This document shows, piece after piece, positions 2,982 through 55,898 of a stretch of DNA of 64,000 nucleotides. Within the stretch, counting starts at the first letter, position 1. Every line of letters starts with the position of its first letter. A program made the position numbers and the translations under genes. The DNA lies in the IMG/VR virus record IMGVR_UViG_3300020147_000009, positions 530 through 64,529 of that record, one strand, 5' to 3'. Source of the DNA: a virus. The notes under the pieces were generated by a model, which worked only from the letters and a program-made list of their open reading frames with translations, made no database searches and was not told the origin of the DNA.

Positions 2982-3539
2982 TTATTCTCCAAGTTTCAGT
3001 CTACCAGTTTCTACACTAAGCTCATGCCAATCTCTGAATTCAATTCCTTTGAAAGCCATTCGTTCTTGCCCATCAAATACACATGTGGATGCTTTGTGGG
3101 CAATATAAGCTTGCATAGCTCCAGAAACATAGCAACCATAACCTTCAAGAAAATATAGGTCCGCGTGGTCATCCATGCTAGGATATTCAATATTGTTATA
3201 AAGACAATATAGATAAGACATTAATACACAATGAGAGCCACTACCTAAGTTGCATATAAAAGTCTTAGTCTTCTTATCATATAACCAACAATATGTATAT
3301 TCATCAGCATCAAATCGAGTTTTAACTTCGGATATGTCATGATATTCTGTATATCCACTAGAATATGGGTTCCATCGACTCTTTCGACCATTACGATATT
3401 CTTCTTCAACTTCGTCCAGGCGCTTTTTAAGTTTGTCACCTTTTTCAAGACCTATATCTAGATAACCGAGGTCGTGTTCAGTTAAAGGTCTACCGATAAC
3501 AGATTCGAGTCTTTTATGGAATTCTTCACGGAATATCAT
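2982..3539 (-). CDS. hypothetical protein (185 aa)
   Basis: ORF. Confidence 0.55.
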   Translation of the reverse strand: MIFREEFHKRLESVIGRPLTEHDLGYLDIGLEKGDKLKKRLDEVEEEYRNGRKSRWNPYSSGYTEYHDISEVKTRFDADEYTYCWLYDKKTKTFICNLGSGSHCVLMSYLYCLYNNIEYPSMDDHADLYFLEGYGCYVSGAMQAYIAHKASTCVFDGQERMAFKGIEFRDWHELSVETGRLKLGE

Positions 3540-3892
3540 TCTTTTGCCTTTGCTTTGAACAATACAATATGAGCATTCATGGCGTTAGTAGATGTTACTC
3601 CATCTGGGAGGTTTTCTTTCAGCCATTCATTGATATAATCATAGTGAACTACAGCACTAGTGGCTTCCCAAAATAGGATAACTAATCCACCAATTTTCTT
3701 CTTAAAAACAGAAATACAAATTGGATAAGTTTCTCCATCAATGGTTACTTGGTTGATTGTCGCAAGCTTGCCTTCGCCACCTCGTTCCCAATCATACTTC
3801 TTACTGTATTCCTGCCAAAGAGCAATAGTTTCATAACTGTTGGCTTCAATTACACCACCAACTTCAGCGAAATATTCTTTCCAAGTATTCAT
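3536..3892 (-). CDS. hypothetical protein (118 aa)
   Basis: ORF, ATGA overlap with neighbour. Confidence 0.5.
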   Translation of the reverse strand: MNTWKEYFAEVGGVIEANSYETIALWQEYSKKYDWERGGEGKLATINQVTIDGETYPICISVFKKKIGGLVILFWEATSAVVHYDYINEWLKENLPDGVTSTNAMNAHIVLFKAKAKE

Positions 3893-18874: not shown

Positions 18875-19726
18875 TTATACTTCGGCTGGAGTTACCGTTA
18901 CTACAGCAACTTCAGAAGCTACTTCTGCAGCAGCTCCGTTTGTAGTTGAGCTTACGACCACTCTGTATTGGCCTGCAACAGTATCATCTTCAGCTGTGAT
19001 TGTAAGAACGTTTGTGTTAACACCATCATATATTTCACCATCATCAATAGTTTCCCAATTGTCTTCAACTTGGAATTCCCAAATATATGAAATACCAGTA
19101 TCTGGAGCTACTGTTACTGACAATTCAACCTCTCCGCCTTCTTCAACCTCAACATCTTCTGGTTGAGCGGTGAAGACGATATCAAAGTCATAAATTCCTT
19201 CAGCAGAATCATCTGAAGCGTCACCAGCGGAAATAGCAGTAACAGAAGAACTCATTGCTACTAAACATTCAGCTCTCCACTTGTCTCCACTATTTTCAGT
19301 ATTCCATCCGTCAAAATACCACCAACCAGGTGTGTTAACACCTTGTTTCTTATTTGTTTCTAATTGAGCTTCATCTCTATCAACGAAAACAATTTTTTTA
19401 TAATCGTATTGAATAGGAGCTAGAACAACCCCAACAGTAAGACCTGTGCCACCAGACATGGATACAGCTGGAAGAGAAACGTCCGCGTCTGTGTAATATC
19501 CTGCTCCTGGGTTTACAAGATTGATTGAACGAACGATACCACCTGATACAACAGCAGTAGCTGTTGCTTGAACTCCATCACCATCCGGAGCAGCAATAGT
19601 TACTGCAACTGCTGCGCCATTAGTATAACCTGTTCCACCGTTCGTAACGTTAATCTTTTTGATTTGGCCGACATCAAGAAATTTTGGTCTTGCTGCACCA
19701 GAATCTGTTTTTCCGAATAAACTCAT
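18875..19726 (-). CDS. putative virion/decoration protein with Gly/Ala/Thr-rich N-domain and acidic Ig-like C-domain (283 aa)
   Basis: ORF preceded by TATAAATA late-promoter motif (19751..19758) and AAGGA SD; composition typical of phage adhesin/Ig-like decoration domains. Confidence 0.5.
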   Translation of the reverse strand: MSLFGKTDSGAARPKFLDVGQIKKINVTNGGTGYTNGAAVAVTIAAPDGDGVQATATAVVSGGIVRSINLVNPGAGYYTDADVSLPAVSMSGGTGLTVGVVLAPIQYDYKKIVFVDRDEAQLETNKKQGVNTPGWWYFDGWNTENSGDKWRAECLVAMSSSVTAISAGDASDDSAEGIYDFDIVFTAQPEDVEVEEGGEVELSVTVAPDTGISYIWEFQVEDNWETIDDGEIYDGVNTNVLTITAEDDTVAGQYRVVVSSTTNGAAAEVASEVAVVTVTPAEV

Positions 19727-19750: not shown

Positions 19751-19758
19751 TATTTATA
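19751..19758 (-). promoter_or_regulatory. T4-type late promoter box TATAAATA
   Basis: Plus-strand tatttata = minus TATAAATA, about 25 nt upstream of ATG at 19726. Confidence 0.45.
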
Positions 19759-19760
19759 AC

Positions 19761-20090
19761 TTATTTAACTTGAAGTCCGTTAGAACCAGACTTAGAGCCT
19801 ACTGGTCGACCTCTTCCTCTTTTTGGAGAATCATCAACAACGTCTGCCTTTTCACCACCTGTTGCTGGACCATGATTCTCCACTTTGGTACCATTAGGTG
19901 TATAGTGATAAGTCTTTTTCATTCCTTCTTTGTCAACCATAGTAATATGAGATTTAGATGGAGAATGTTTAGCGTCAAGAACATTAAAACCTGCATTTTT
20001 ATATGTTGACACCTTATCAAGGAAAGATACATACCCCATACTATCTTCTCTCAACAGGTCAATATCGTCTTTATTTAGTTTGTAGCTCAT
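19761..20090 (-). CDS. hypothetical protein with C-terminal AT-hook-like GRGRPVGSKSG motif (109 aa)
   Basis: ORF; RGRP core of AT-hook. Confidence 0.5.
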   Translation of the reverse strand: MSYKLNKDDIDLLREDSMGYVSFLDKVSTYKNAGFNVLDAKHSPSKSHITMVDKEGMKKTYHYTPNGTKVENHGPATGGEKADVVDDSPKRGRGRPVGSKSGSNGLQVK

Positions 20091-20099: not shown

Positions 20100-23000
20100 T
20101 TATTTAAATACATGCATTGGGTGTGGTTTATCAACACCAATGTCGTTATCTTTGTGAACAATCTTACCATTTTCCAAATGAATCTTATTACGAATAGTAT
20201 GGGAACCTAAATCTTTTTGAGTTTGGTCGTGTTTAGCATAAATGATATCACCTACTTTTTCATTTGTATGACCTGAACCGACGAAGTATTTATGTTTCCC
20301 TTCTCTATCAGAAACAACATGAACAGTCATCTTATCGTTACCCCACGTATCATGGATATCTTTCAATGAAGACTTGTTTTTGTCATGTAGAATTCTTGAA
20401 GCTGGAAGAGTTGACCTATAATGAGCCTTAGCTTCTTCGTTGATGTCAATCGTATAGTCTTCAAATACAATTTCGATATCTTGATTTTCTTCAAGACTAT
20501 CCCATTCCTTGATGGCATCTGATGCTGACTCAAAATATACTGAAATTACTTCGTCACCAGATTTAAGGCAATATCCAGATTTTGTTTCGATAGTATCTTC
20601 AATGATTTCTGATGTCTTTTCATTTAAATATTCTGAGAATTTGAATGATTTCATTTCTTCTACTTTTTCATTTAATCCACCAATTACTGGGATATCATGT
20701 CCTAGTTTCTTGATGTGTGATTTGGCCTTACCGATGTTTGAATTGTGAACGACAACCTTACCATTCTTAATATCAGCATTAATGTCATTATTTGCTAGAG
20801 ATTGAAGGATATGGTCATGTTCCGTATTTTCATCTATAATCATATCATTTTCATAGTCTTCATGTACAATTTTTATTCCCTTTTTCTCATGGTCCGACAT
20901 ATTTCTCCATGTTGTCATAGCTGAATCAGCTGAATCATGTCTTTTAGAAACATATTTTCCATCTTTTTTCAGATAATGACCCTTACCAGAATATGAATGT
21001 CCTGCATTTGAAACAAGAGAATTATGAGCTGCATGATTTTCAGATGAAGGTGATTCTTCTAATGTTGTTTCTTCATTCATTCTTCTAATGTGATTAAATG
21101 ATGAAATGATTCTTCCATTAGATTCAACAGTTTTTATAGTGGAACTACTGCCATCTTTAAAATAGAATTCGTGATGTGTGCCTGTTTTTTGTTTAATCTT
21201 TGGTTCAATAGCATCCTTCTTAAGAATACCCAAAACATGGTTATGAGCAGCATATACACTCTTGTGCTTTGTCATATCCCATTTAATGTTTGTTTCCCCT
21301 TTACCATCTGAATCATGTAAAATCTTATTTCCGTCAACTTCATTCATTGATTCATTTATAGGTAAAGATTCTTCCTTAAGTTGTTCAATATGCTCAGCGC
21401 CATGAACTTTGTAACCATACTTCTTGTAGTGCTTCTTAGCTATTTCAACCGCAGCTTCCTTTGAAGAAGCTTTCACTTTAGCTCTTCTTTCTTTTTGTAC
21501 TTTTCTTTGTATAACAGAAGGATGGTCCGGTTCAGAAACTGTTACAATAACTCTATGATATTCTTCGTTCATATTTAACTCTATTGACTCGTTTAATTTT
21601 CTATCTTTAAACTCTTGAATTTTCTGTTTAATATTTCTTTGACCAGCCCTTGCGTGAATTCCTTTGTGTTTCCATACACCATCTTCTCCCTTATGGAAGT
21701 CACCTACCATATGAGTTGTCTTATTACCACCACTTCCAATACCCATATGTCTCCAAGCTAAAACAGCGTGGTTTCCATCAGCAGAAATATGAGAATGTTC
21801 AATTCCGCCAATATATCCAAATTTATTAGTCTTACGATAATCTCGATTTATTTCCTTGTGAATCTTTCCATGACTCTCAATATCTGTGTTATACCCATCC
21901 TTCTTGGCTTCGTCAAGAGATTCCTTAATAGGTCTATGGGTAAAGATTAATTTCTGATGTTTATCACCATGTTCATGTTCTAGGTGTACAGAAGTACCAT
22001 CCGGATGGTGCATTGAGTCTGAATGTGTTATCATTGATTCAGAACTATGTCTTATATATAGACTTTTCCTGTCTTGTCCCCAACCACGAGGGTGTTGGAA
22101 GCCATGCTTTGCAAGATGGTCATAAATCTTCTGGTGAGAAACATCTTTAGAAACATGGACAACCTTATGATTTGGAATAGCTTGTCCAGTCAAACGATTT
22201 ATGTATGGGTGAGCATCTGTACCCTTCAAATTCTTTTGAGTGTTTTTGATATGCTTATCCATACCAGATAAGGATTTACCTTCATCAAGCTCAGTTGACT
22301 CGCCATAGATACGTTTCTCTCTTTGCTTAGCAAGTTCTGCTGCTAAATTTTGTGTATCTTTTGATGCCTTAACAGAATGCTTATAGTGATTTTCTAAGTA
22401 ATCATCCAACCATTTCTTGCGTTCAGCTGGAGACAAATGACTTGGTGCTTCAGGAACAACACCTTCATGAAGTTCAGGTTTATATTCCCTTTTGAACTTA
22501 GAAAAATCTTTGGCAATGTATTCATGGTCATCTTCTCTACCTTTAAGATGCTTTCCACGATTAGAATCCAAATAATGTTTAATTGTTACATTAGGATTCT
22601 TTACGTCTTTAAGATGTCCTGCCTCACCAACTACTTTCTTTACTTTAGCATGAGTTTTGGAATAGTTTTCATCAGCGTTTTCTGAATGAGTCCCATGGTA
22701 ACCATATCCTTCATTACCAGTTTTAACAGCTTCATCCAACAATTCTTCATTTAGTTTTTTCCAACCTGGCATATATTCTGCGGATTTATTATGTCTTTTA
22801 ATTATAGCTTTATGTAAATCAGATATATTCTCAGATGACTTAACCTTACTCCATTTCACTGGAAGATGTATTCTTTGTTGATATCCTTGTCGAAGAGTAT
22901 GCACACCATCCTCATGTGTTATTCTATATGGACGGTCTTTACCGCTTTTATGGTGAATAACCGTATCTCCTCTATCTTTATAGATATTGTATTCTTTTTT

Positions 23001-23420
23001 TAGTTCATCCTCATGATTTACTTCTTCTATCAATGATTCTTCTTTTAATTTAGGAAGCTCGTCATGATAAATATAACCTTCACCTGCATTTTTATTCCAA
23101 GTTCCTATGGTTCCCTTTTTAGTATGGGTTGCATTATTACCAGAAACGTATCCACCAAGAGATTCTGCCTTTTTCTTCCACTCAGATTTGTCTTGGAACA
23201 ATTCTTTATATTTTGAACCCTCTTTAATAGGAATTTCATCCTTACGCTTTTGTTCTTCATGGTCATTTTCACCATTATGAACAACTATACCAGATTCTCT
23301 ATTAGCACCAACCTTAATCTCACCAGAAGCAATCTTCTTTTTAGTTTCTATCTGCTTTAGTTTAGTTGCCAGAATCTTATGACCGCGGGATTCTAGAATG
23401 TCAGTTAATTTCTTTGCCAT
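20100..23420 (-). CDS. giant hydrophilic His/Lys/Asp/Gly-rich protein (1106 aa), function unknown
   Basis: Uninterrupted 3.3-kb ORF; recurring H-x-DG / GxH / KH segments; translationally coupled to upstream 706-aa gene. Confidence 0.7.
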   Translation of the reverse strand: MAKKLTDILESRGHKILATKLKQIETKKKIASGEIKVGANRESGIVVHNGENDHEEQKRKDEIPIKEGSKYKELFQDKSEWKKKAESLGGYVSGNNATHTKKGTIGTWNKNAGEGYIYHDELPKLKEESLIEEVNHEDELKKEYNIYKDRGDTVIHHKSGKDRPYRITHEDGVHTLRQGYQQRIHLPVKWSKVKSSENISDLHKAIIKRHNKSAEYMPGWKKLNEELLDEAVKTGNEGYGYHGTHSENADENYSKTHAKVKKVVGEAGHLKDVKNPNVTIKHYLDSNRGKHLKGREDDHEYIAKDFSKFKREYKPELHEGVVPEAPSHLSPAERKKWLDDYLENHYKHSVKASKDTQNLAAELAKQREKRIYGESTELDEGKSLSGMDKHIKNTQKNLKGTDAHPYINRLTGQAIPNHKVVHVSKDVSHQKIYDHLAKHGFQHPRGWGQDRKSLYIRHSSESMITHSDSMHHPDGTSVHLEHEHGDKHQKLIFTHRPIKESLDEAKKDGYNTDIESHGKIHKEINRDYRKTNKFGYIGGIEHSHISADGNHAVLAWRHMGIGSGGNKTTHMVGDFHKGEDGVWKHKGIHARAGQRNIKQKIQEFKDRKLNESIELNMNEEYHRVIVTVSEPDHPSVIQRKVQKERRAKVKASSKEAAVEIAKKHYKKYGYKVHGAEHIEQLKEESLPINESMNEVDGNKILHDSDGKGETNIKWDMTKHKSVYAAHNHVLGILKKDAIEPKIKQKTGTHHEFYFKDGSSSTIKTVESNGRIISSFNHIRRMNEETTLEESPSSENHAAHNSLVSNAGHSYSGKGHYLKKDGKYVSKRHDSADSAMTTWRNMSDHEKKGIKIVHEDYENDMIIDENTEHDHILQSLANNDINADIKNGKVVVHNSNIGKAKSHIKKLGHDIPVIGGLNEKVEEMKSFKFSEYLNEKTSEIIEDTIETKSGYCLKSGDEVISVYFESASDAIKEWDSLEENQDIEIVFEDYTIDINEEAKAHYRSTLPASRILHDKNKSSLKDIHDTWGNDKMTVHVVSDREGKHKYFVGSGHTNEKVGDIIYAKHDQTQKDLGSHTIRNKIHLENGKIVHKDNDIGVDKPHPMHVFK

Positions 23421-23421
23421 A

Positions 23422-25542
23422 TTATTGCTCTTTCGTAAATGACTTATGATTCAGTCTGTCTTTTTCTAATTGTTTTACTCTTGGAATAAGCTTAACTGAT
23501 AGTCTATTAAGGATAGCCTTAGACTTAGATAGTCTTTGTTCCAAACGCTCTTTTTCCGCTACCGACAGTTTATCCAAAGGCTTCTTAGCCAATCTTCTCT
23601 TAAGAGCCTTAACAGCAAGTCTTCTAGCTCTCTTGTTGATTGTCTTATTGTCACCCTTACGCTTAAGAGCAAGCTCAAGTCTTCTTTCTCTCTTCGCTTT
23701 AGTTCTTGCGAATCTAATCTTTGCTCTAATTCTTTCTGGTCTTGTCAGAACTTCATTTAATTTCTGAACGGCTTCTTCACTAAGTTCTTCATCTTCTTGG
23801 CTGCAACAAGCAACTTCTTCACCAGTATCAGCATCAATAATTGACAATTCTTCATCGTCATAAGCGTCAAGATAATCTTCTTCAAAGTCTAAGTGAGTAT
23901 TAATAATGCTTTCTAAATCTTCATCAGAAAGAGTATCTTCCAGAGATTGTTCACCATCATCTATAGTGAAGTCATTTAGGCTGTCAGCTTCCTTAATGTA
24001 AACATGCTTTGTTGGCTTATCCTTTTTAGTAAGGTCAACAATTTGAACATGCTTACCTACCTTAACGTCATCCTTAGCTTCCCAATGACCATCATTAATT
24101 TTCTTCATAACATGTTCATGGCTATGTTCTTCAGCTTCATTAATTTTCTTATGATTTTTTAATTCACTGACATGTTTATCCGCATCTTCTTTTGCAGTTT
24201 CACCTTTGAAAGTCTTAACAGTCTTACCGTTAGACATTACTCTATATTCATTATGCCCGATATGTTGTGACCAATGTTCTTCAGATTCTTCCTCAACCAA
24301 GGATTGGTCATAATTAATACCAGCATCCTTAGCAATCTTCAACATATTGTGGAAAGCCTTCCTTGATTTGGAAGTAAGCTTGATTGTTTTTGCTCTCGTT
24401 AAAGCATCATTTACTAACTCTTCTGGGCTCATGCCTCTAACGGCTTCCCCAAAGGTGTTAGCGATAATTACTGCTATCTTTTGTTTGTCAGAAGAATTAG
24501 CGCTCATTTCTATTAGTTCCTTAATGTAGGAGTGATTCTCTATTTGGTTTATATTTTCCAATAAAGAATACGCCTTCTCAACACATTCTTTATTAAATGT
24601 TACGAAATACTTATTTATATTTATAAAAGATGAAACAAGGGCCAGTTTATCCTTGAATTCCCCATTGATGTATGATTCATTGGTCTTTCTGAAAGATTCT
24701 TGAACCTCAACTGGCAAAGATTCAATATTGAAATATTTAGGATGATATTCTGATTTGGAAATTTTAACCTTATCCGGCCATTTCTTACTAATGACTCCGT
24801 CTTCAGTAATTACAGTCAGATAATTTGAACCAATATCTAGGACTTCATATATACCTTTATCATCCTCTACGATATCATCAACCTTGTAAAGTTTTCCTTG
24901 ATAGAAAGCTTCTCTTTCTGGTGCTATTTCAAGTTTAATTTGTTCTTGTATTGATGTTATCCCAAGACCGTTCTGGACGTCACTGAAATATCTCTTAGCA
25001 TCGAATAATGAAAGACTTTTTGGGATGCATTTTTTAAATGATTCGAAGTCTGATTTCCTGGCAAACTCCCTCATCTTTGTTCCGGAAATACCAGAAATTG
25101 ATTCAGAATCTGGGTCTCTGTCTCCAACAGAAACTACCTTTATTGAATCATATTGGTATGATTTACCATTATATTTATTCAGTCTATCCTCATATTCAGC
25201 TACCCTATCAGAGCCGGCTACCATGATGATATTCTTATATTTTCTATTGAGTCTACCAACGAAATGCATGAACGATGGAAGTTCATCAGTCGCTGGAATG
25301 AAATTAGTGCCTTTGGAAATTTTCTTTGCCCAGTAGAGTCTTTTTTCTACTGATAGAGGATTCTTATCTGAATCTTGAGATTTACTAAGAACTATTACAT
25401 GGTCTGCTTCAAGAGAAGCAGCAATTGATTTGACTTTATTTGTTAATAAGTCATGACCGGAAGTATAAGGATTGAATCTACCGAATGCAAATACTACTGT
25501 TGACTTTGGTAGCTTACGCACCAAGGTTTTAAAAGTTTTCAT
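23422..25542 (-). CDS. multidomain protein: N-terminal cytidylyltransferase-like nucleotidyltransferase domain, acidic central region, highly basic C-terminal tail (706 aa)
   Basis: VVFAFGRFNPYTSGHDLL = (G/T)xFxPxTxGH HIGH-type nucleotidyltransferase motif (TagD/PPAT/NMNAT-like); DE-rich stretch ~residues 520-590; C-term RKRERRLELALKRKG...KRRLAKK. Confidence 0.65.
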   Translation of the reverse strand: MKTFKTLVRKLPKSTVVFAFGRFNPYTSGHDLLTNKVKSIAASLEADHVIVLSKSQDSDKNPLSVEKRLYWAKKISKGTNFIPATDELPSFMHFVGRLNRKYKNIIMVAGSDRVAEYEDRLNKYNGKSYQYDSIKVVSVGDRDPDSESISGISGTKMREFARKSDFESFKKCIPKSLSLFDAKRYFSDVQNGLGITSIQEQIKLEIAPEREAFYQGKLYKVDDIVEDDKGIYEVLDIGSNYLTVITEDGVISKKWPDKVKISKSEYHPKYFNIESLPVEVQESFRKTNESYINGEFKDKLALVSSFININKYFVTFNKECVEKAYSLLENINQIENHSYIKELIEMSANSSDKQKIAVIIANTFGEAVRGMSPEELVNDALTRAKTIKLTSKSRKAFHNMLKIAKDAGINYDQSLVEEESEEHWSQHIGHNEYRVMSNGKTVKTFKGETAKEDADKHVSELKNHKKINEAEEHSHEHVMKKINDGHWEAKDDVKVGKHVQIVDLTKKDKPTKHVYIKEADSLNDFTIDDGEQSLEDTLSDEDLESIINTHLDFEEDYLDAYDDEELSIIDADTGEEVACCSQEDEELSEEAVQKLNEVLTRPERIRAKIRFARTKAKRERRLELALKRKGDNKTINKRARRLAVKALKRRLAKKPLDKLSVAEKERLEQRLSKSKAILNRLSVKLIPRVKQLEKDRLNHKSFTKEQ

Positions 25543-25588: not shown

Positions 25589-26710
25589 TCAGTCGTTCTT
25601 TTTGAAGTTTTGGTGTGAAAATTCAGTTCTATCAACTAATTTTACACTAGTTTCATAGAATGATGCTACGTAACCTTCGTGAGCACCATCGACACCAAGT
25701 ACAGAATTTTTATTGAGGTCATTGATGATACTTATTTTAAGATAATTAAGGTTATTTATTATCGTCAAAAAGTTCTCGACATGTTCCTGTGGCATTGCTT
25801 CAATTAATTTTTCTTTTTCAGCTTGATATCTGCGTTTTGTTGATTTCATCTTTCTGTTTCTTTTGATGTCATCATAATACTCATGGACAAATCTTATAAA
25901 ATCAACGTAATTACCAGATGGATAATAGCCTTTCCTTATACAATTGTTATAATATCTCTTAAATAAGAGTTTGGCTTTTTCTGTATTATCAACAGCTTCT
26001 ATGAATATGTAAGACTCTTCCAGAAGCTTGAATATATTAACGTGAATATTTCTAAATACATCATTATCTAAAGTTGACGTAACTTCGTCAAAATTATATG
26101 TTGCATCAATACACCACAGGTCACCAAAGTTTTTGAATTGTTCAGAAATTGGTGCACCAAACTCAGCTTTAAGTTTCTTCAAACTAGGTCCTGAATATTT
26201 GGTATGAAAAACTATTCCACATTGAGCATTAACGATATCATTACCTAGTTCACTATTAATAGGAACGAAATACTCAAGAGTATTAGTTTTAAAATAGTAT
26301 GAATCTAATCCTGTGATGATATCATCTTTTGTAAACATCAAGTCGCCTTGATAAATACCTTCTTTAATACCTAGCTGAGAACAAGTATTAAAGATAATCA
26401 TCATCTTATTAGCCAATTCAATATTGTCAATCATCTCATAAATACCATCAATTGACTTGTAAACCTCTGGTTCCTTATTGAATATAGACTTCTTGGCAAC
26501 AAAAAACGCACCATCTTCAGGGTCAATACCGATGAATACAGAAGGGGAGCCGTCATATTTGGTAGACATCTTAAGAACTTTGATGTTATTACCAGCCATC
26601 TTAGATAAGATTAAACTAATAATAGTCAGGGCTGTTACAGCTCCACTAACTCCTTCAAGAGCTAGTTCTTCTATATGTGGTAGGTGATTATTTATCATTT
26701 GACTATACAT
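25589..26710 (-). CDS. rnlA: RNA ligase 1 (T4 RnlA-like)
   Basis: Motif I KYDGS, C-terminal EGYVASFYE...VKLVD resembles T4 Rnl1 EGYVAVMKDGSHFKIK; 373 aa vs 374. Confidence 0.7.
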   Translation of the reverse strand: MYSQMINNHLPHIEELALEGVSGAVTALTIISLILSKMAGNNIKVLKMSTKYDGSPSVFIGIDPEDGAFFVAKKSIFNKEPEVYKSIDGIYEMIDNIELANKMMIIFNTCSQLGIKEGIYQGDLMFTKDDIITGLDSYYFKTNTLEYFVPINSELGNDIVNAQCGIVFHTKYSGPSLKKLKAEFGAPISEQFKNFGDLWCIDATYNFDEVTSTLDNDVFRNIHVNIFKLLEESYIFIEAVDNTEKAKLLFKRYYNNCIRKGYYPSGNYVDFIRFVHEYYDDIKRNRKMKSTKRRYQAEKEKLIEAMPQEHVENFLTIINNLNYLKISIINDLNKNSVLGVDGAHEGYVASFYETSVKLVDRTEFSHQNFKKND

Positions 26711-27787: not shown

Positions 27788-29179
27788 CTACTGAAAGTTG
27801 AAGCCGTTGAAATTCGGCTGTCTATTTATAGATTTATCAAACAAAGGAGTGTCGTCATCTTCTTTTTTACCAGCATCAGAGATGTCCGATTGAGCGGATT
27901 CTTCCACATCGAATAACTTCATTCGCTTGAAGTCTACACCAACAACAAATCGCTTATAATAATTTGGGTCATTATATCGATTCTTTAATTGCTTAATCAT
28001 TATCTGATTAAGACTATCTAACTCTTCTGTTCTAATCAATGCCAAGTACAAATCCAGAGTCTGTGGAAGACCGATAGATTCTGATGTATTTGTCATATCA
28101 ATGTCAGAAGAATCAATACCTTCTCTATTGGCTTGAGTAGCCGTTAGAATTGGAATGTCAAACTCAACACAGAGAGAACGAATTTCTTCTGCAATAAATT
28201 TAACATAAGTATATGAATTGATTGAACTACCCATCTTGATTCTTTGTGAAGCACAGATGTTCAAGTAGTCAACAACCATAATATCTGGTACGAAGTCTTT
28301 CTTAAGTTTCAATTCACGGAGAAGAGCTCGGAAGTGACCAGCATGAGCAGAACCAGTTGGGTATTCCTTGATAATCAACTTACCCTTGGTTTTGTTCGAA
28401 AGTTTTACTACTCTGTTGTTGAAGTTATCGTAATCAAGATGTTTTAAGTCCTTGATATTAACATTCAACAAATTAGCATCAATTCTCTCTGCGATTCTTT
28501 CTTCAGCCATTTCCATGGTAACATACAGAACATTTTTACCTTGAAGAAGTGCTGCAGCTGCTGTATGACACATGAATAATGTCTTACCACCACCAGTTCC
28601 AGAAATAACACATGTTAGACTCTTCTTTGGAAGACCACCTTCTGTAATCTTATTCAGAAGGTCGATATCAAACGGAAGTCTTTCATCTACCCTGTTATAA
28701 AACTCAAAACGATTATCAGAATCAAGAACGTAATCGTGTCCAACTGCTGTGTCAAATGATACTGCCAAAGCATCAGATAGAATCTTTGGAATTGAATCCG
28801 GAGCTTTGTTAGCATCTTTTCCATCGATAATATGTATTGATTCATATATAGCATTAAACAGTGCTTTCTTTTTGCAAAAACTTTCAGTCTCTTCAACTAA
28901 CCATTCTTGATTAACACTACTAATGGAAGATATTTCTTTGATTAGGTCAATTGATTCTTTTAATTGGGTTTCAGATACGTCATCTCTATTAGAGATTTGG
29001 ATTGTTAAAATATCTGAATTTGGCTTGGAATTGTATTTTGTGTAGAAATTTGATATTTCTTGAAGGACTGTTGCTTCGTTTCCTTCGGTGAAGTATTCCT
29101 CTTTTAGGAATGGTAGAACTTTTCTTGCGTATTCTTCTGAATTTAATAAATTACTAAGTATCTCTAACTCTATCCTCAT
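27788..29179 (-). CDS. 41: replicative DNA helicase (T4 gp41, DnaB family)
   Basis: Walker A VISGTGGGKT and DnaB-like motifs. Confidence 0.9.
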   Translation of the reverse strand: MRIELEILSNLLNSEEYARKVLPFLKEEYFTEGNEATVLQEISNFYTKYNSKPNSDILTIQISNRDDVSETQLKESIDLIKEISSISSVNQEWLVEETESFCKKKALFNAIYESIHIIDGKDANKAPDSIPKILSDALAVSFDTAVGHDYVLDSDNRFEFYNRVDERLPFDIDLLNKITEGGLPKKSLTCVISGTGGGKTLFMCHTAAAALLQGKNVLYVTMEMAEERIAERIDANLLNVNIKDLKHLDYDNFNNRVVKLSNKTKGKLIIKEYPTGSAHAGHFRALLRELKLKKDFVPDIMVVDYLNICASQRIKMGSSINSYTYVKFIAEEIRSLCVEFDIPILTATQANREGIDSSDIDMTNTSESIGLPQTLDLYLALIRTEELDSLNQIMIKQLKNRYNDPNYYKRFVVGVDFKRMKLFDVEESAQSDISDAGKKEDDDTPLFDKSINRQPNFNGFNFQ

Positions 29180-36182: not shown

Positions 36183-37571
36183 TTATTCCTTTGAGGAAGC
36201 CTTCTTAATAGCTTTAGTAGTTTCCTTCTCTGTTTCTTGAGCTACTACACCAAGCTTGTTAAGAAGGGCAGCTCCCTGTTCGGTATTTGAAAGACCTTCA
36301 AGCATCGAACCAAGTGCTACACCACCTTTGCTGGTCAGAACTTCAGACAAACTTTGAACACCGCCAGTTACCTCACCGGAGTTAACGATAATCTTGAGGT
36401 CAGCAGCTTCCAATGCCTTAGCATTTTCGATACCAATCTTCTCGTTAGCTTCAACTTGACGGACAGTAACCAGGTAGTTTTGGTAACCAACATTTTCGCC
36501 GATTTCTTTAGCCAATGTAATCTGAGTTTCAACAGGAGCCATAAGGATAGCAGTTTCTGCAGCACCTTTTGCTTCACCTTCAACTCGAATACCTTCAGCT
36601 GCTCGACGTTGAGCTTCCAAGTTACCTTCAGCAATAATAACTGTCTGTTCCTTGGTACCTTCAGCTTTAATAACTTGGGTACGCTTTTGTTCTTCAGCTT
36701 GAACGATTTTAACTTCTTTTTCGATGTCGGCCTTCTTAACTTCTTGAACCTTAACAACTTCCATCGACTTTTCAGTAGTTACCTTTTCTTGGGACTTGAT
36801 TTCTTGAAGGGCTTGTTCCTTCGCGATACCAACTTCCTTTTCTTTCTCGGCTGTTCGAATACCAACGGCTTGTTGAGCTTCTTGAGCACGAATATCAACA
36901 GCTTGTTTTGCTGCAAGTTCTGCAGTTTGGGCTTGCTTAGTGTTTTCAGCTACTTCAATACGTGATTGCATCTCAATCAAGGACTTCTTCTTTTCCATGA
37001 TGTTTTGAATCACCTTAGAGTCTTTGCTGTCGCGAATATCCATAAGTTCGATATTCTTAACTGTAGTAACACCCCAATGAGTAAGTTGTTCAGCCACTTC
37101 CTTGGTAAAAGCTTCACCAAACTCAGCACGACCTTGCATGATTTCTTCAATGTCTTTCGAAGCTAGAATAGTACGAGCAGCACCTTGTAGAATAGAGCGA
37201 AGCTGGTTATTTAGCTCTTGAACATTCGAAACTCTCTGAGCAGCAATGTTAGAGTCTGCAATACGGAAGAAAGCTTCCATATCAAGAACGAACGGCAATC
37301 TACCCTTGTCATAAGCATCATAACCTTCAAGACGCAGACTGAAGTTAGAAACTGGCAACTTAATAACTTGAATACCAATTACTGGAATCCAGCTTGGCCA
37401 TTCATAATATGTGTTACCATCAGAGAGGTCCTTACCATACGATGTAGTCTTCTTTCGAGACTGCACAATATGAACCTCATTTGTGTTCACTACACGGCGC
37501 AGTGACACTACCCAGACAGCGAAGCAAACTGCAATCGCCGCCAGTACAAGACTTCCAATAAGCATAATCAT
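36183..37571 (-). CDS. SPFH/band-7 (flotillin-like) membrane protein with long EA-rich coiled-coil
   Basis: N-terminal TM (LIGSLVLAAIAVCFAVWVV), SPFH-like core, extended A/E/K/Q repeats typical of flotillins. Confidence 0.7.
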   Translation of the reverse strand: MIMLIGSLVLAAIAVCFAVWVVSLRRVVNTNEVHIVQSRKKTTSYGKDLSDGNTYYEWPSWIPVIGIQVIKLPVSNFSLRLEGYDAYDKGRLPFVLDMEAFFRIADSNIAAQRVSNVQELNNQLRSILQGAARTILASKDIEEIMQGRAEFGEAFTKEVAEQLTHWGVTTVKNIELMDIRDSKDSKVIQNIMEKKKSLIEMQSRIEVAENTKQAQTAELAAKQAVDIRAQEAQQAVGIRTAEKEKEVGIAKEQALQEIKSQEKVTTEKSMEVVKVQEVKKADIEKEVKIVQAEEQKRTQVIKAEGTKEQTVIIAEGNLEAQRRAAEGIRVEGEAKGAAETAILMAPVETQITLAKEIGENVGYQNYLVTVRQVEANEKIGIENAKALEAADLKIIVNSGEVTGGVQSLSEVLTSKGGVALGSMLEGLSNTEQGAALLNKLGVVAQETEKETTKAIKKASSKE

Positions 37572-37603: not shown

Positions 37604-37903
37604 CTACTTTTCTTCTACTACATATTTTCCGGTTTCAATATCAAATCTTTCAACTTTTCCAGTTTCAATATTGAATCGGTCAAATCTTATCCCTAGCATA
37701 TAGGTAACTTTTGCTGGTATTGGACCAGCAAAGATACCGTTAAATTCAGGAATAAAATCCTTTTGACACTTATCACACCACAAGTGTCCTTTGAATTCAG
37801 ACCATTCACATTCATCGTTACCACAACTGCATGGACTGACTTCAAATTCTTTTGGTTTCTGTATATAGAACCAAGTTCTCTTTTCCAACTCAGGCATATT
37901 CAT
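37604..37903 (-). CDS. small zinc-binding protein with tandem 10-aa C-terminal repeat
   Basis: CSCGNDEC...CDKC; RFNIETGKVE / RFDIETGKYV encoded by ~30-bp tandem DNA repeat at 37620..37690. Confidence 0.5.
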   Translation of the reverse strand: MNMPELEKRTWFYIQKPKEFEVSPCSCGNDECEWSEFKGHLWCDKCQKDFIPEFNGIFAGPIPAKVTYMLGIRFDRFNIETGKVERFDIETGKYVVEEK

Positions 37904-39050
37904 CTGCTGCAGTTGTATGGTTGAATTCAGAGTAAACAGTTCTTAATGTATATTCACTCAAATAATTCTTTTCCCAGAAACCTTTATAATCTGGCTCCTT
38001 ACCATCGTAAAGTTTCATTGCAAGCCCAAAGAAAGAATAGCTTCTATATTTCTCAGCTGCATCCTTTCTTGTTGGTTCAGCTTTAATCAGTTCAAACATT
38101 TCTTCTGTTGCAGAAACTATTCCCTTCATTTCTTCAATGTATCGATTTTCAATAGCTTCAACTAAAGAAAGGTCATAATTTGATTCAACAATAGTTGACT
38201 TGATATCATCTAAGGTCTCATCAACGCACATGCGAGCTACGTCTCGTTCACGTAAGTCTGTATTGATATGGTGGCGAAGGTTGTACCAATTACACTTTGT
38301 CTTTACTCGAGTTCCATCCTCGAACGCGATGACGAAACCTTCCATACCACACATATTCTCAATTTGAGCTTCTATGTCTTCATAATTAGTCATTCCATCA
38401 AACTTCTTAACAACAGAAACGTTTGGGTTATCAATAGATAATAGAGAAGATGGCCATAGATTTTTATGTTCAACATATAAACCATTATACGAGTCTCTAA
38501 CGGCAATTAAAGTCCATGTTGGTTTTTGACCATAATCGACAACAATTTTCCAGTCAGGATGGGTGAATTCCCAAATTGGGGATAATCCAACATCAAGAGC
38601 AATTTTGGTAAGAGCTCTTACACATTCTGGAGCCATCTCATTTGCTAGCTTAGCTACATCAGAATAGAAAGATTTCTTAGTCTTGAAATATACTTCTCCA
38701 CCTATACAAACCGCAGTAATCATCGAGCCGTCTCGTTTTTCCAGAACTTCGAATGGTTGGTCCCAGTTCAAGTTGTGTACTTGAGTAGATTCTTTTTCAT
38801 TGATGTTGAAAAACTTAGGAAAAGCCATAGAGATTAGCTGACCAGTGTCCTTACGGAATACATGGCCGCGGCATTCCAAACCCATTGGTTTAGCCCAAAG
38901 TTCTGGAGATGCAATCATATAACATGGAATAACAACATCAATTCCACCAACAGTTTCTTCCTTGAATTGAACTGTCTTGTCGTCTCGTAAATGGTCAAAA
39001 TCACTTAGATGCATAATATTTTTCCTATTCCATCCTATATCAAGTGTCAT
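37890..39050 (-). CDS. RNA ligase-like nucleotidyltransferase (second KxDG ligase)
   Basis: Motif I LEKRDGSM, motif IV/V EGFVIAFEDGTRVKTK; 386 aa. Confidence 0.6.
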   Translation of the reverse strand: MTLDIGWNRKNIMHLSDFDHLRDDKTVQFKEETVGGIDVVIPCYMIASPELWAKPMGLECRGHVFRKDTGQLISMAFPKFFNINEKESTQVHNLNWDQPFEVLEKRDGSMITAVCIGGEVYFKTKKSFYSDVAKLANEMAPECVRALTKIALDVGLSPIWEFTHPDWKIVVDYGQKPTWTLIAVRDSYNGLYVEHKNLWPSSLLSIDNPNVSVVKKFDGMTNYEDIEAQIENMCGMEGFVIAFEDGTRVKTKCNWYNLRHHINTDLRERDVARMCVDETLDDIKSTIVESNYDLSLVEAIENRYIEEMKGIVSATEEMFELIKAEPTRKDAAEKYRSYSFFGLAMKLYDGKEPDYKGFWEKNYLSEYTLRTVYSEFNHTTAADEYA

Positions 39051-40885: not shown

Positions 40886-42082
40886 TTAATCTTCACCACC
40901 TTTCAACAGGAACTTGTTAGAGATTGCCTTGAATGTAAAGTTGCTGTCATGCGACTTAAACACTAGACCTTCTCTTACTTCGTTGTTGATACTTGCTCCA
41001 TCAGCGAAAGATAGCATTTCTTCAATGTTGTTGATACTAATGTCACTAAGATTAGTTTCAAAGTAAACAACAGGAACCCAATAGATATCAACACCAAAAT
41101 CCACTCTTAATCTATTAATGATGTTATGTCTCTCATCGGGAGTCATATATTTTTGTTTTTCGATATCCCAAATATCGAAGACATAGAACTTATGTTCACT
41201 GAAACCTTCACGGTTGCCTTGGATTCCAGGTCCCATGAGTTCTCCTTGGATAGCCATAGGGTACCCATAATCATATAGAGCTTGAATCAAACCAGAATTC
41301 TTGGCAACATCTACATAAGTATTGCCTTCCTGGTCTAACTTAAGGTTCATGTTTCTTGAGCATACACCTACCTCAGTCTTACAATCGCTGTGGTCAAAAC
41401 CAAATTCATGGTTGTAGTATACAGTCATAGAAGAACCATCAAGCTTAAGGGTTACTTCATACTTTTCATCCTTATGCTTTTCGAAGATGTCTCGTACCAA
41501 GTTTTGGCAACGTTCTTGGTCAGTTTTACGGATAAAACTAGGGAAAGAACCCCTAACCTGACCTGCTAATTGACCAGGAACAGGCTTCTCATATTTCTGG
41601 ATACCTAAAGCTTCAGTTACATCTTGTCCTTCAGAAACATTTTGAATATTTCCATCAATATGGTCAATATAATATCCACCATTTTCTGAATATTTAACTG
41701 GCATAATCAAACCTTGTGAAACTTGACCACGTAGCTTGATTGTTCTGAGTCTGGCACCAGGAACTCCATTGTATTCCTTTGGAATTCCACCCTTAGACAA
41801 AAACGGCGCAACTGAGTCAGGTACCCAAGAATCAATTTCAAAGTAGACTACAAGGTCTCCAACATTGAAACCGTTGTCGATTGCCGTTACAACCCACCAT
41901 CCACCAATTCGAGCCTTTACAATCTTGTCAGCTCCTTCAATTGGTTGGATTTCTTCAATTACACGAATTGTTGCAAGCTTACGAAACTTTGGCTCAGGAC
42001 TAGGCAATCCATCGTCATATGGAATACCAAAATATTCACCTTCTACCGTACCACGTTCTTCATCTACTTTAATTTCCATCAT
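40886..42082 (-). CDS. RNA ligase-like nucleotidyltransferase fused to N-terminal tRNA-binding OB-fold (Trbp111/EMAPII-like) domain
   Basis: N-term IEGADKIVKARIGGWWVVTAIDNGFNVGDLVVYFEIDS resembles the Trbp111/EMAPII tRNA-binding OB-fold; motif I VTLKLDGSS; motif IV EGLVFK. Confidence 0.55.
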   Translation of the reverse strand: MMEIKVDEERGTVEGEYFGIPYDDGLPSPEPKFRKLATIRVIEEIQPIEGADKIVKARIGGWWVVTAIDNGFNVGDLVVYFEIDSWVPDSVAPFLSKGGIPKEYNGVPGARLRTIKLRGQVSQGLIMPVKYSENGGYYIDHIDGNIQNVSEGQDVTEALGIQKYEKPVPGQLAGQVRGSFPSFIRKTDQERCQNLVRDIFEKHKDEKYEVTLKLDGSSMTVYYNHEFGFDHSDCKTEVGVCSRNMNLKLDQEGNTYVDVAKNSGLIQALYDYGYPMAIQGELMGPGIQGNREGFSEHKFYVFDIWDIEKQKYMTPDERHNIINRLRVDFGVDIYWVPVVYFETNLSDISINNIEEMLSFADGASINNEVREGLVFKSHDSNFTFKAISNKFLLKGGED

Positions 42083-43895: not shown

Positions 43896-44948
43896 TTAGA
43901 AATACTTACTTAAGTTGGAAACAGTATCACATGAAGTGTCATCTACTTGTCTAGCAATCTTGCGTTTTGATATTAAATGTGGGTTTTCTTTCAACCAACA
44001 GTAAACACCGAATTGACACAAACCGACTTCTAAACCATACACTTTTAAGTTGTTTTGCTCATCTTTGAACACTTTTTTGTTGTTTATTTCATAGTTATGG
44101 AAGAACTGGTGGATAGTGATATGATTCAACAACGTGGACTGGTTATCTCTCAACCAGACTACCATTTCTCCATACTTTCTTTTACCGGTATAACTGTCAA
44201 AGATGTAGTCAAGAGATGATCTTGCTCCAGGACCAGGTGCACAGAATTCCTCATCATGTTGGAACGGAAGATACGGATTGACTGAATTAGACGTGGCGCA
44301 GTGATAACCATAATATTCACCAATGCCTGGTTTTGAAGTCAAAATACCATACATATCCTTTAGAGTAATAGCGTCGTTTTTTATCCTTTCGAACGTTCCA
44401 TCTGATTTCCAAGATGCAATCCATTCGATGATATCCGATAAGGAAGCTTCTCTATCTGGTTCTCCATACTTATTTCTACAGAAATTTCTTGCAGCTGTTT
44501 GCAAAGATGTATGGAGCTCGGTAGTACCATAAAATTTCTTCTTTGCTTTCTTTGAGATATCAATCTGAGTCTTGATGTTATTCAAATACTCAATATCACC
44601 AGCATCTATTCGTTCAAAATCGACATGAGCCTTCTTGTAGTCCTTAATGCCAGTGACAATTTCATGAATACCTCTAGCGCCATAGAAGTGGGATATAATT
44701 GTGTTACCAATCTTATTATCCATAGATAGAGAATCAACTGTTACGATGTTCTCAATGATGTATCTCATACGGTCATCTTGGAGAATATTGAAACCAAAGT
44801 ATTCAACATCTTCATCAAGAGCTGGGTCATCTACAGGAGGGTCGTATCTGTCACGTAGATTGAATTGATATTCAGTTCGTTCATTAACTTTTATTAGGAA
44901 TTGTTCAAACTCTTCAAGTCTTTTCTTATTCAAATTGTTCGATAGCAT
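43896..44948 (-). CDS. hypothetical protein (350 aa), first gene of the putative sugar/cyclitol cluster
   Basis: Long ORF; no motif recognised; HCATSNSVNPYLPFQHDEEFCAPGPGARS conserved-looking core. Confidence 0.55.
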   Translation of the reverse strand: MLSNNLNKKRLEEFEQFLIKVNERTEYQFNLRDRYDPPVDDPALDEDVEYFGFNILQDDRMRYIIENIVTVDSLSMDNKIGNTIISHFYGARGIHEIVTGIKDYKKAHVDFERIDAGDIEYLNNIKTQIDISKKAKKKFYGTTELHTSLQTAARNFCRNKYGEPDREASLSDIIEWIASWKSDGTFERIKNDAITLKDMYGILTSKPGIGEYYGYHCATSNSVNPYLPFQHDEEFCAPGPGARSSLDYIFDSYTGKRKYGEMVVWLRDNQSTLLNHITIHQFFHNYEINNKKVFKDEQNNLKVYGLEVGLCQFGVYCWLKENPHLISKRKIARQVDDTSCDTVSNLSKYF

Positions 44949-54081: not shown

Positions 54082-54561
54082 CTAAAGTTCAAACGTCTTG
54101 TTTAATTCAAAATCATCCTGAGGGCCCGACTTATTTATAATTTCAATAACTGATTCTATTAAATCTTCAGGCACAACAAGGTCATTCTCAATAATTTGTG
54201 CTAATTGCCCAAATGTCATGCCATTGTCATTCAGAATTGTTATACCAACAGAAGAACCTTTGTAAATTCCCGATTCAATTTTAACTATAAGATTTTGAAA
54301 CCTATTGCCAGTGGTTTCAAATCCTAGATGTTTAGCTATTGCAATTGGTAATGTTCCACCTTGGCCGTCATAAGAAACCATGTCGGAATTTTCATTTTCA
54401 ACTTTTATTACATCACACTTAGGATAGAATAAGTCACAGGCTACACCAAGACAACAAAACTCTTCGGAATCATCCGGCAACTTTGTGTGAAGGGTTCCAG
54501 TGCCTTGTTTATATTTTCCTGAGCGAAGTGCTTCTACCCATTCTTTCCTAGCTTTATTCAT
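54082..54561 (-). CDS. hypothetical protein (159 aa)
   Basis: ORF. Confidence 0.5.
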   Translation of the reverse strand: MNKARKEWVEALRSGKYKQGTGTLHTKLPDDSEEFCCLGVACDLFYPKCDVIKVENENSDMVSYDGQGGTLPIAIAKHLGFETTGNRFQNLIVKIESGIYKGSSVGITILNDNGMTFGQLAQIIENDLVVPEDLIESVIEIINKSGPQDDFELNKTFEL

Positions 54562-55898
54562 AATGTATCTGCCTCAGTCTTATCGAAACGAACTTCAACG
54601 AATACCGGTAAGAACAGGCTAGTGCTACCATCAGAAGCCTTAATGATTTCATTATACTTGATAGCGGCAATCTTACCGATTGGCTTATTTTCCCAGTATT
54701 CTTTACGTTGTGCGTCAGAAATACCAGTTCCTACGTTAACTTTGACTTTACCGTCTGCTGATTCACAACAGAAGGCACCAACCATACCTTCATATTTACC
54801 TCTACCTTCTTCGACTCCAGTAATCAGAAGGTCACATTCCAATTCAGCTTTAAATTTAATCAAAGACTTAGAACGCTTATCTTCCCAAGGAGCATTGATA
54901 TCCTTCAAAATGATACCTTCGTATCCTTCAGATAAGTATCTACGGAACTCAACCTGAGCTTCTTCAAGGTTCTGGACTTCTTTAGTCTCTATTACTTGAA
55001 TTGTTATATTGTCAGTTGTTGCCAATTTCAACTCAGAAAATCTCATTCCATATGGAAGTTGGAAATATCCAGATTGGAATTTGTTATATGGAATCCAATC
55101 CCAAATTACAAAGTAGACTCGTTTAGCTTCTTCTGGAGAAATTGTTCCACGGTTCGCCTTTGTTAGAATACCATTACCTTCCTTACGAGTCATTGGCTTA
55201 GTGAAGTCTTCATTCCAAACCATTAGTTCTCCATCGATGACAATACCATTACCATCATCATGAGCAAAACTTAAAGTATCGTTTGAACCGATAAGAGTAT
55301 ATAAAGCGTGGTCCAATTTACCTAAAATATCCAGTGGTTTTCCGCTTCGAGCAAAAAAATCAACTTGTCCGTTGTTGATGACTGCGTTACAGCGCATCCC
55401 ATCAGATTTCAGTTGAGCATAGGCTGGCCACTTCAGCTTGTTAATAAGCTTCTCATGATACCCTGAAGCAAGCATGCACGGCCATTCAGGAATCAAATCA
55501 GGCCAAATCTTATTAACTGTAGAGATTGATACTCCACAATCTAAATCCTTAGCAATGATGAGTTTAATAACTTCAGCATCAGCTGAATGTACTGATGATA
55601 AAATTTTACGCAGATGTTCGACACCTGCGTTTCCTGTTAATTCACGCCTTGACAGTCTTTCAAGCTCATTGATTGCCAGCTCTAATGATAGCGGCTTTTC
55701 AGGTGAGACAAATCCTGGAATATTATGGGCGTATTCAGGAATTTTCCGAATATAATATTGTTTGAGAGGATTCAGTGCAGCCTTGAAGACTTTCTGTAGA
55801 AGGTCATCGCTTGCAAAATCCTTTTCCCTCTTAAGAACACCCTCTTTAAAGAGACGAGAATTATCCGTACGAAGTTCTTGAATAATATTGTATATCAT
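54558..55898 (-). CDS. 30: ATP-dependent DNA ligase (T4 gp30-like)
   Basis: Motif I QLKSDGMR, motif IV EGIILKD, OB-domain motifs; 446 aa. Confidence 0.85.
   Translation of the reverse strand: MIYNIIQELRTDNSRLFKEGVLKREKDFASDDLLQKVFKAALNPLKQYYIRKIPEYAHNIPGFVSPEKPLSLELAINELERLSRRELTGNAGVEHLRKILSSVHSADAEVIKLIIAKDLDCGVSISTVNKIWPDLIPEWPCMLASGYHEKLINKLKWPAYAQLKSDGMRCNAVINNGQVDFFARSGKPLDILGKLDHALYTLIGSNDTLSFAHDDGNGIVIDGELMVWNEDFTKPMTRKEGNGILTKANRGTISPEEAKRVYFVIWDWIPYNKFQSGYFQLPYGMRFSELKLATTDNITIQVIETKEVQNLEEAQVEFRRYLSEGYEGIILKDINAPWEDKRSKSLIKFKAELECDLLITGVEEGRGKYEGMVGAFCCESADGKVKVNVGTGISDAQRKEYWENKPIGKIAAIKYNEIIKASDGSTSLFLPVFVEVRFDKTEADTL

Follow-up and report, generated by a model that had tools for sequence, protein, structure and literature searches.

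What do two giant open reading frames (ORFs), set almost end to end among the replication genes of a T4-like phage, encode? The question is raised by IMG/VR virus record IMGVR_UViG_3300020147_000009, of which we analyzed positions 530 to 64,529 (64,000 nucleotides, nt; hereafter the window, whose numbering is used for all coordinates). Both ORFs described in an earlier note on this DNA are present on the minus strand, one of 706 amino acids (aa) at 23422..25542 and one of 1106 aa at 20100..23420. Their junction (TAA-T-ATG, 23418..23424, minus strand) reads ...GAG CAA TAA T ATG GCA..., confirming the 1-nt gap between stop and start that the note had reported, and the ATG of the 1106-aa ORF is preceded, at a distance of 8 nt, by a Shine-Dalgarno-like AAAGAG. 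Judged from this spacing, translational coupling of the two is plausible. A third ORF of 109 aa (19761..20090, minus strand), which starts 9 nt past the stop of the 1106-aa ORF, consists of one module and an AT-hook-like tail, KRGRGRPVGSKSG, and is the third piece of the array. Our answer is that the three ORFs are most likely a lineage-specific array of head-internal (ejected) proteins in a T4-like marine myovirus related to the Kyanoviridae.

Homology shows that the three ORFs are one system. In the relatives P0004, P0035, P0065, P0089, P0097, P0110 and P0061, the nucleotidyltransferase (NTase) of the 706-aa protein is fused to modules of the 1106-aa type; P0097 retains the whole 706-aa architecture, from NTase to acidic/basic tail, with 1106-aa-type modules inserted in between. 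The 109-aa ORF, which corresponds to the family's usual C-terminus, has its homologs in internal or C-terminal stretches of P0025 (E 6e-23), P0095 (E 4e-17), P0119, P0083 and more than 10 others. Its homologs end in an AT-hook-like KRGRGRPxGSKSGA motif that occurs 29 times in family proteins. The fusions of NTase and modules, the shared tails and the homology of the 109-aa ORF indicate that the same array is split into ORFs at different places among phages. Behind the NTase, the array comprises at least 12 small autonomous domains, mostly basic, rich in His and Lys, Cys-free and shuffled between phages; the 706-aa protein has the NTase plus at least four modules, and the 1106-aa protein at least seven. 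We regard this modular, shuffled, split-or-fused architecture as established by sequence comparison, irrespective of whether the products are packaged.

The 1106-aa protein proved hydrophilic and rich in His and Lys, as had been noted (7.9% His, 12.9% Lys); no other ORF of the window is richer in His, the window median being 2.1%. The accompanying idea of a repeat scaffold did not hold up. Self-BLAST at E = 10 gave no off-diagonal match and hence no internal repeats, the modules are mutually unrelated, and the single duplication that we found, missed by BLASTP, involves a domain of only ~45 aa (residues 814-860 and 949-993; Smith-Waterman z = 8.2, a score reached in 0 of 2000 shuffles). Scans of the protein against Pfam, PHROG and NCBIfam gave nothing significant, and tblastn against phage records found one 65-aa patch only. 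A word-indexed search returned the protein itself and nine relatives, each sharing ~9% of its length, while an exhaustive HMMER search returned 466 metagenomic proteins that share single modules with it. These modules recur in other orders and combinations or as stand-alone proteins of 78-160 aa; no relatives were detected for the stretches between them. By this evidence the 1106-aa protein is a chain of at least seven autonomous modules.

All of these modules are encoded on the minus strand. The leader MAKKLTDILE/S (the slash marks the predicted cut) and module M1 (SRGHKIL...) occupy residues 1-62 (23235..23420). Module M2, at residues ~135-225 (22746..23018), also exists as stand-alone proteins of 93-107 aa (P0129, P0138, P0153). 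Next comes M3 (residues ~226-325, 22446..22745; 221-325 by the mapped HMMER hits), with LLDE230/A in front and the signature GNxGxGYHG...HYLDSxHGRHL; it has invariant residues and is the commonest module and the hallmark of the family, present in ~87 of the 154 retrieved proteins. The His-rich M4 (17 His; residues ~360-504, 21909..22343; 360-515 by the mapped hits) is bounded by LDE380/G and by IKE500/S or LDE504/A. The second commonest module, M5 (residues ~612-690, 21351..21587; 600-695 by the mapped hits), is a small beta-alpha-beta domain with the signature HRVxVTVSEPDHP...GYKVHGAEH. The M6 region (residues ~795-930; 20631..21038) has two sub-domains, the first of which (814-860) is the one duplicated at 20442-20576. 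Compact, mostly beta M7 (residues ~985-1106; 20103..20468) is C-terminal in 7/7 proteins. AF2 models of M5 and M7 were confident (pLDDT 83-84). A sequence-profile search of the modules against solved structures gave no match, and the top PDB profile match of the concatenated module alignment, T7 internal virion protein gp15, was treated as noise at E 0.08. The arrays of relatives also contain HicA toxin, RMF and DUF5824 domains.

The borders between modules carry a recurrent motif. The T4 prohead protease gp21 cuts after L/I-X-E, and the earliest mapped site is a Glu-Ala bond (PMC9026906). In the 1106-aa protein, [LI]xE occurs 23 times vs 12.9 expected (p = 0.002), and a strict junction motif occurs 11 times vs 1.9 expected, falling on the module borders defined by HMMER. 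The junction motif was also 2.3-fold enriched in an independent set of homologs (257 vs 111 expected). Across six unrelated module types, [LI]xE was found no more than 14 aa upstream of 69-100% of the cores, compared with a background of ~13%. For M1 it precedes 6/7 occurrences, with Ser after the Glu in five; for M3 it precedes 50 of 67, with Ala next in 41 of those 50; and for M4 it precedes 9/9 anchors and is followed by Ser. Real substrates in related phages use the same kind of site: the scaffolds have 15-19 of them (about three times the expected number), residue 56 closes the capsid propeptide with L-T-E/A, and VELDE/S is found in a small core protein. The predicted cleavage products of the array are 6-15 kDa and mostly of pI 8-9.7, the exceptions being acidic spacers and enzyme parts of 23-25 kDa. 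For comparison, the T4 internal proteins (IPs) are basic and 8-20 kDa (PMC9026906).

The earlier note had recognized a HIGH-type nucleotidyltransferase at the N-terminus of the 706-aa protein, and profile searches agree. The domain spans residues ~13-200 (24943..25506, minus strand), with the motifs FGRFNPYTSGH and ISGTKMRE. Pfam CTP_transf_like (PF01467) matched residues 19-159 with 28.5 bits against a cutoff of 21, covering profile positions 2-132 of 133, and PHROG 3041/395 ‘cytidyltransferase’ matched at E 1.6e-54. Alignment with PPAT extends over the whole domain and both signature motifs (FGRFNPYTSGH with GTFDPITKGH, ISGTKMRE with ISSTLVRE). PPATs are the nearest solved sequences, at E ~0.01 only, and an NCBIfam scan returned the generic TIGR00125 domain alone, below cutoff, with no equivalog. 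The label ‘NMNAT’ comes from the annotation of the S-SCSM1 ortholog. An NAD-salvage pair of Nampt and NMNAT was considered and dropped, there being no Nampt among the ten large window ORFs scanned.

The first ~270 residues of the NTase protein match 564 phage records, nearly all from Kyanoviridae (T4-like cyanophages); the other matches are to Pelagibacter phage HTVC008M, Methylophilales phage Melnitz and some jumbo enterobacterial phages. By these matches, the 706-aa protein is the ortholog of the well-known conserved ‘cytidyltransferase’ or NMNAT-like gene of cyanomyoviruses (T4-GC 190). The cyanomyovirus-type proteins S-CREM2 gp154, S-SCSM1 NMNAT, P-SSM4 155 and HTVC008M gp130 are 29-38% identical to it (E 3e-24 to 4e-55), and like it they combine NTase and beta domain, lie downstream of gp41 and DUF6267 and have a CTS-like leader (see below for the capsid-targeting sequence, CTS). 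However, cyanophage versions are about 290-380 aa long, whereas the present protein has 706 aa, with extra modules, an acidic/basic tail and an 1106-aa array after it. Orthologs of the enzyme, among them HTVC008M gp130, Melnitz gp18, P-SSM4 155 and S-CREM2 gp154, have only the NTase and the following beta domain in common; the C-terminal extensions vary by phage.

Past the enzyme, residues ~201-418 (24289..24942, minus strand) form a beta-rich domain, SH3-like by eye, and a helical region. The beta domain is kept with the NTase in orthologs, with PHROG profiles reaching residues 324/380 and BLAST alignments spanning residues 1-270, and residues 334-434 match P0097, P0045 and P0146. Two small His/Lys-rich modules follow at residues ~419-518 (23989..24288, minus strand), bounded by LVE417, INE469 and IKE518; here residues 463-526 and 438-514 match P0018, P0030, P0125 and P0080. 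The acidic and basic segments pointed out earlier are borne out by counting. The acidic block (residues 519-597; 23752..23988, minus strand) has 31 D/E, 1 K/R and a pI of 4.1, with 15-16 D/E and 0-1 K/R per 40 residues over the stretch 521-600, and it ends in L-N-E597/V. The Arg/Lys-rich helical tail (residues 598-706; 23425..23751, minus strand) has 39 K/R and a pI of 11.8, with 14-18 K/R per 40 residues from 600 to 706. Homologs of the tail form the C-termini of P0045 (E 9e-41), P0146, P0145 and P0097; another is N-terminal in P0010, where this basic half precedes 1106-aa-type modules. Together the acidic and basic parts are a conserved two-part module, C-terminal in the proteins that have both halves, and an L/I-X-E followed by V is kept at the acid-to-base transition in 5/5 such relatives.

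The N-termini of the family bear on targeting to the prohead. In T4, the CTS is MKTYQEFIAE (PMC8442874). A strict regular expression fixed from this T4 sequence matched 23/153 family N-termini, for example MKTYKELMES, MKSFTEFME/SRGHK and MSIKSFKQFIAE. Among the controls, it matched 0/108 other ORFs of the window, 3/1831 internal Met positions and 3/223 ORFs of related loci, all three of the latter inside this locus. NTase orthologs have leaders of the same kind: MKNFSSFLTE/A in S-CREM2, MKKFSAFLKE/A in P-SSM4 and MKKFSEIIE/A in Melnitz.

Within the window, a loose form of the CTS pattern is found only in the 1106-aa protein and in a 118-aa ORF at 3536..3892 (minus strand; phrog_18096). The latter starts MNTWKEYFAE/VGG, a near-copy of T4 MKTYQEFIAE. 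This start makes the 118-aa ORF a candidate for a classic single-domain internal protein and suggests that a CTS system operates in this phage. In Melnitz, gp17 (L003 8612-9004), a protein of 130 aa encoded just upstream of the cytidyltransferase, has a strict CTS-like leader, MKKFSELTSE..., and from this leader it appears that neighboring genes of the slot may also encode head cargo.

A physical link to the prohead comes from another phage, in which P0029 is a genuine gp21 with a Peptidase_S77 domain, encoded in the order portal, small core genes, P0029, scaffold, Gp23. Its C-terminus bears an M7 module (46% identity) after a linker rich in L/I-X-E. As for the virion itself, two NTase orthologs, S-CREM2 gp154 and S-SCSM1 ‘NMNAT’, have been found in virions by mass spectrometry, and S-CBWM1 and another estuarine phage are also cited for virion detection of the NTase (PMC10665884, PMC9602691). 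The first two match the 706-aa protein at E 3e-24 and E 8e-36, respectively.

The suggestion of packaged internal proteins, which had been made in passing for the 706-aa protein, is the best-supported reading, if by indirect evidence: sites at module borders, CTS leaders, the gp21 fusion and the proteomics of orthologs. We infer packaging and cleavage from these, and we lean modestly towards the view that the proteins are head-packaged, protease-processed and injected internal-protein polyproteins. The polyproteins would enter the prohead core by means of their CTS-like leaders, by affinity for the scaffold, or both. A prohead protease of the gp21 type would then cut them at L/I-X-E into products of ~6-15 kDa, which would remain with the packaged DNA and be injected together with it. 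Inside the host, the enzyme and the modules would act in early take-over or counter-defense. The array ends in DNA-binding-type tails, one being the Arg/Lys helical tail, masked by the adjacent acidic block, and the other the AT-hook.

A bolder form of this reading strikes us as possible, though we would not expect it to prevail. Here the array would belong to an unrecognized combinatorial effector cassette of marine and freshwater T4-like phages, the abundant cyanophage and pelagiphage lineage included, with dozens of novel mini-domains that are loaded by a CTS, diced by the protease and injected. The ‘cytidyltransferase’ would be the founding cargo and the acidic block a removable mask of the DNA-binding tail. 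The founding enzyme might, for example, re-make NAD or another nucleotide cofactor at the onset of infection and thereby counter depletion-type immunity.

Several findings weigh against packaging and processing. The strict junction motif was defined only after the data had been seen, and L/I-X-E with an acidic run could be a helix-cap or flexible-linker habit of hydrophilic proteins. The CTS pattern occurs in just 15-21% of family N-termini; many of the family proteins are probably incomplete or mis-started. The 1106-aa leader, MAKKLTDILE/SRGHK, is a loose CTS match only, with its I-L-E site at residue 10, and the 706-aa leader, MKTFKTLVRKLPKS, is CTS-like but has no Glu site, its start MKTFKTLVRK lacking the acidic CTS positions. 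The fusion of M7 to the protease is known from a single cluster representative. The modeled M5 and M7 had no informative fold relatives, and for M7 no fold relative was detectable at all. The co-directional block that contains the array (the 356-aa, DUF6267, 706-aa, 1106-aa and 109-aa genes) has a well-placed T4-type late-promoter-like box, TATAAATA, 58 nt upstream of its first gene (27823..27830, minus strand), but this is weak evidence: with 12 such boxes in the window vs 7.6 expected, they are not significantly enriched.

The position of the locus also counts against the reading, since it lies among replication genes (gp41, gp43, UvsX, RNR) and not among head genes. The IP and alt genes of T4 likewise lie outside the head cluster. 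Finally, in this region of S-CREM2 gp154 alone was flagged as a virion protein and gp155-160 were not, and the authors warn that cytoplasmic proteins, if abundant, can turn up in CsCl preparations as contaminants.

Some of these points are what one would expect of cytoplasmic, non-packaged multidomain proteins, the strongest of the competing explanations, which we nevertheless consider rather unlikely. Such proteins would serve host take-over or the organization of phage DNA, with basic tails and AT-hook binding DNA in the cell; the NTase would be an NMNAT-like auxiliary metabolic enzyme and the junction motif a linker. The genes do belong to a block devoted to replication and nucleotide metabolism, where gp43, UvsX and gp41 lie upstream of them and RNR and ligases close by. 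The 706-aa leader lacks the Glu needed for cleavage, the virion detection of the NTase is possibly contamination by its authors' own account, and the genes downstream of it in S-CREM2 went unflagged. An AT-hook and Arg/Lys tails suit any DNA-binding role. However, a cytoplasmic function leaves unexplained why T4-type CTS leaders are specific to this family, why L/I-X-E is positioned before six unrelated modules and why M7 is fused to a genuine prohead protease. It also has to contend with the detection of the NTase in virions in several independent cyanophage proteomes.

It is improbable, in our view, that the proteins serve assembly alone, as accessory components of the prohead core or scaffold that gp21 would degrade in the manner of gp22, gp67 and gp68 and that would be expelled before DNA packaging, with nothing functional injected. 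The density of L/I-X-E is comparable to that of real scaffolds, the composition is very hydrophilic and Cys-free, and a fusion of one module with the core protease exists; in T4, moreover, multi-site cleavage is a hallmark of removed core proteins (PMC9026906). Against this, the modules fold as compact domains in which certain polar residues are invariant, and stand-alone proteins consisting of a CTS and one domain exist, which is the architecture of the retained T4 IPs. Enzyme- and toxin-type domains in the arrays (NTase, HicA, RMF) make little sense in scaffolding, extreme shuffling and variability would be unexpected for an assembly scaffold, and the NTase has been found in mature virions.

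The earlier note had also raised metal binding. Family medians are 4.9% His and 13.6% Lys, with essentially no Cys, and a His content of 7.9% in the 1106-aa protein, invariant His residues in M3, M5 and M7, ferritin-family genes adjoining the slot in three related contigs, and weak EF-hand and dockerin-like Ca-loop matches in relatives all fit a His-rich protein that binds Ni, Zn or Fe or serves as a repeat scaffold, possibly linked to the ferritin-like genes nearby. We give this very little credence as an explanation of the array, because the protein is not a repeat protein (only the ~45-aa domain is duplicated), its His residues are at scattered conserved positions in different folds and not in tracts, Cys is absent, no known metal-binding family matched in Pfam, PDB profile or NCBIfam searches, and the leaders, sites and protease fusion are left unexplained. 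It is not exclusive of the packaging reading, and individual modules could bind metals.

Among the closest functional counterparts of the array are IPI, IPII, IPIII and Alt of T4. The predicted mature products are small and mostly basic as in T4, many family members and the NTase orthologs have ~10-residue leaders of the MKTYQEFIAE type, and the sites are L/I-X-E/A or S. Both loci are hypervariable and lie outside the head cluster, and both include an enzyme among the cargo (Alt in T4, the NTase here). In contrast to the T4 IPs, which have a single domain and one cut, up to ~12 domains are concatenated here and each is preceded by a site, both window proteins have degenerate leaders, and packaging is predicted only. 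It had been stated that neither large protein resembles a classical T4 early protein. This stands to the extent that no internal-protein family matched in Pfam, PHROG and NCBIfam scans, in which the sequences of the T4 IPs and Alt were not themselves compared, but it overlooks the T4-type CTS leaders and gp21-type sites of the family.

The array also resembles the polyvalent proteins of Iyer et al. 2017 (PMC5512222) in its many disparate small domains per polypeptide, in rampant shuffling, in predicted delivery with the DNA and processing by a protease, and in the presence of nucleotide-metabolism, RNase-type and DNA-binding domains. Its domain number falls within the 2-15 disparate domains per polypeptide by which polyvalent proteins are recognized. 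As for linkage to head or packaging genes, another trait of polyvalent proteins, the array is in a replication region, and in the head operon of another phage a module is joined to the prohead protease. Polyvalent proteins have an embedded zincin, whereas here the prohead serine protease would do the cutting, at L/I-X-E. A Pfam scan of the window proteins and 70 relatives found none of the polyvalent signature domains (MuF, ART, DarB-type methylase-helicase, zincin peptidase, ArdC-N and others), and a term search of PMC5512222 found no cyanophages, HicA or the present family.

Like the inner-body and ejection proteins of the jumbo phages phiKZ, 201phi2-1 and SPN3US, the array has several predicted X-X-E cuts attributable to a gp21-related protease and redundant propeptide sites (PMC5694885, PMC9026906). 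The motif there is A/S-X-E as opposed to L/I-X-E here, the proteins are unrelated, and cleavage is verified by proteomics there and predicted here. Judged by its sequence, the array is a member of none of these three groups, that is, T4 IPs and Alt, polyvalent proteins and jumbo-phage inner-body proteins.

Nearly all T4-like cyanophages have kept the ‘cytidyltransferase’, which recurs in virion proteomes with no role assigned to it, and its placement at the front of a proposed CTS-tagged, protease-cut cargo array gives it a concrete context. In the searchable literature we found no link of capsid-targeting sequences to cyanophages, only a T4 review that cites cyanophages once in its reference list. 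If our interpretation is correct, the T4 internal-protein paradigm would extend beyond coliphages to the dominant myoviruses of the ocean. It would also expose a large reservoir of small domains, likely shaped by phage-host conflict, and provide naturally occurring rules, for leaders and for sites, by which foreign proteins might be loaded into the capsids of marine phages.

The setting of the array is that of a T4-like phage. GC content is uniform at ~35% across the window, nearly all genes are on the minus strand, and the remainder of the window consists of T4-type replication and nucleotide genes. The conserved order is PolB, UvsX, gp41 helicase, a ~356-aa protein, DUF6267, cytidyltransferase, variable genes, an Ig/S-layer protein and DUF7207. 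Every relative of the 1106-aa protein whose contig was examined comes from a T4-like phage of a marine or freshwater metagenome and occupies this hypervariable slot, flanked by DUF6267 and DUF7207. No close DNA relative of the locus turned up in a megablast search of 50,697 phage records. A homolog of gp21 was sought in the window and not found, which places the head genes elsewhere on the contig.

Directly upstream of the 706-aa gene is the DUF6267 gene (25589..26710, minus strand; Pfam E 8.9e-69), the conserved syntenic partner of the NTase gene; the phrog_455 profile spans DUF6267 and NTase in fused form. The N-terminal part of the DUF6267 protein contains KYDG and its C-terminal part EGYV...VKLVDR, which recall motifs I, IV and V of ligases and capping enzymes. 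A search for sequence relatives of DUF6267 in PDB found none. The idea that DUF6267 is the phage's missing DNA ligase was rejected for this lack of relatives and because the window already has an ATP-dependent DNA ligase and two RNA ligases. The three genes, all on the minus strand, are a T4 Rnl1-type ligase (37890..39050), an RNA_ligase with PHA02142 OB domain (40886..42082) and the ATP-dependent DNA ligase (54558..55898).

On the other side of the array, a 283-aa protein with Ig-like domain (18875..19726, minus strand) matches PHROGs of head, baseplate and fiber proteins, and another TATAAATA box (19751..19758) lies 25 nt upstream of its gene. The protein probably decorates the virion; its gene is embedded in the replication region, next to the array. 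Near the arrays of related contigs we saw DUF6321 (L006 and L008) and DUF5824 (L004). The ferritin-family genes (PF00210) that adjoin a module-array gene are at L004 7555-8001, L006 4541-4987 and L008 4050-4535; none was seen next to the array of the window.

Three further genes of the window, all on the minus strand, deserve mention. A 462-aa SPFH/Band 7 protein (36183..37571; E 1.4e-18) is encoded within the replication region. The 385-aa ORF at 46094..47251 matches the domain of myo-inositol-1-phosphate synthase (E 1.9e-25), which is unusual among the auxiliary metabolic genes of phages. The 350-aa ORF at 43896..44948 has the helical domain of 5-hmdU DNA kinase (HMUDK_hel, E 1.4e-14), a match which hints that the phage may hypermodify thymidine in its DNA.

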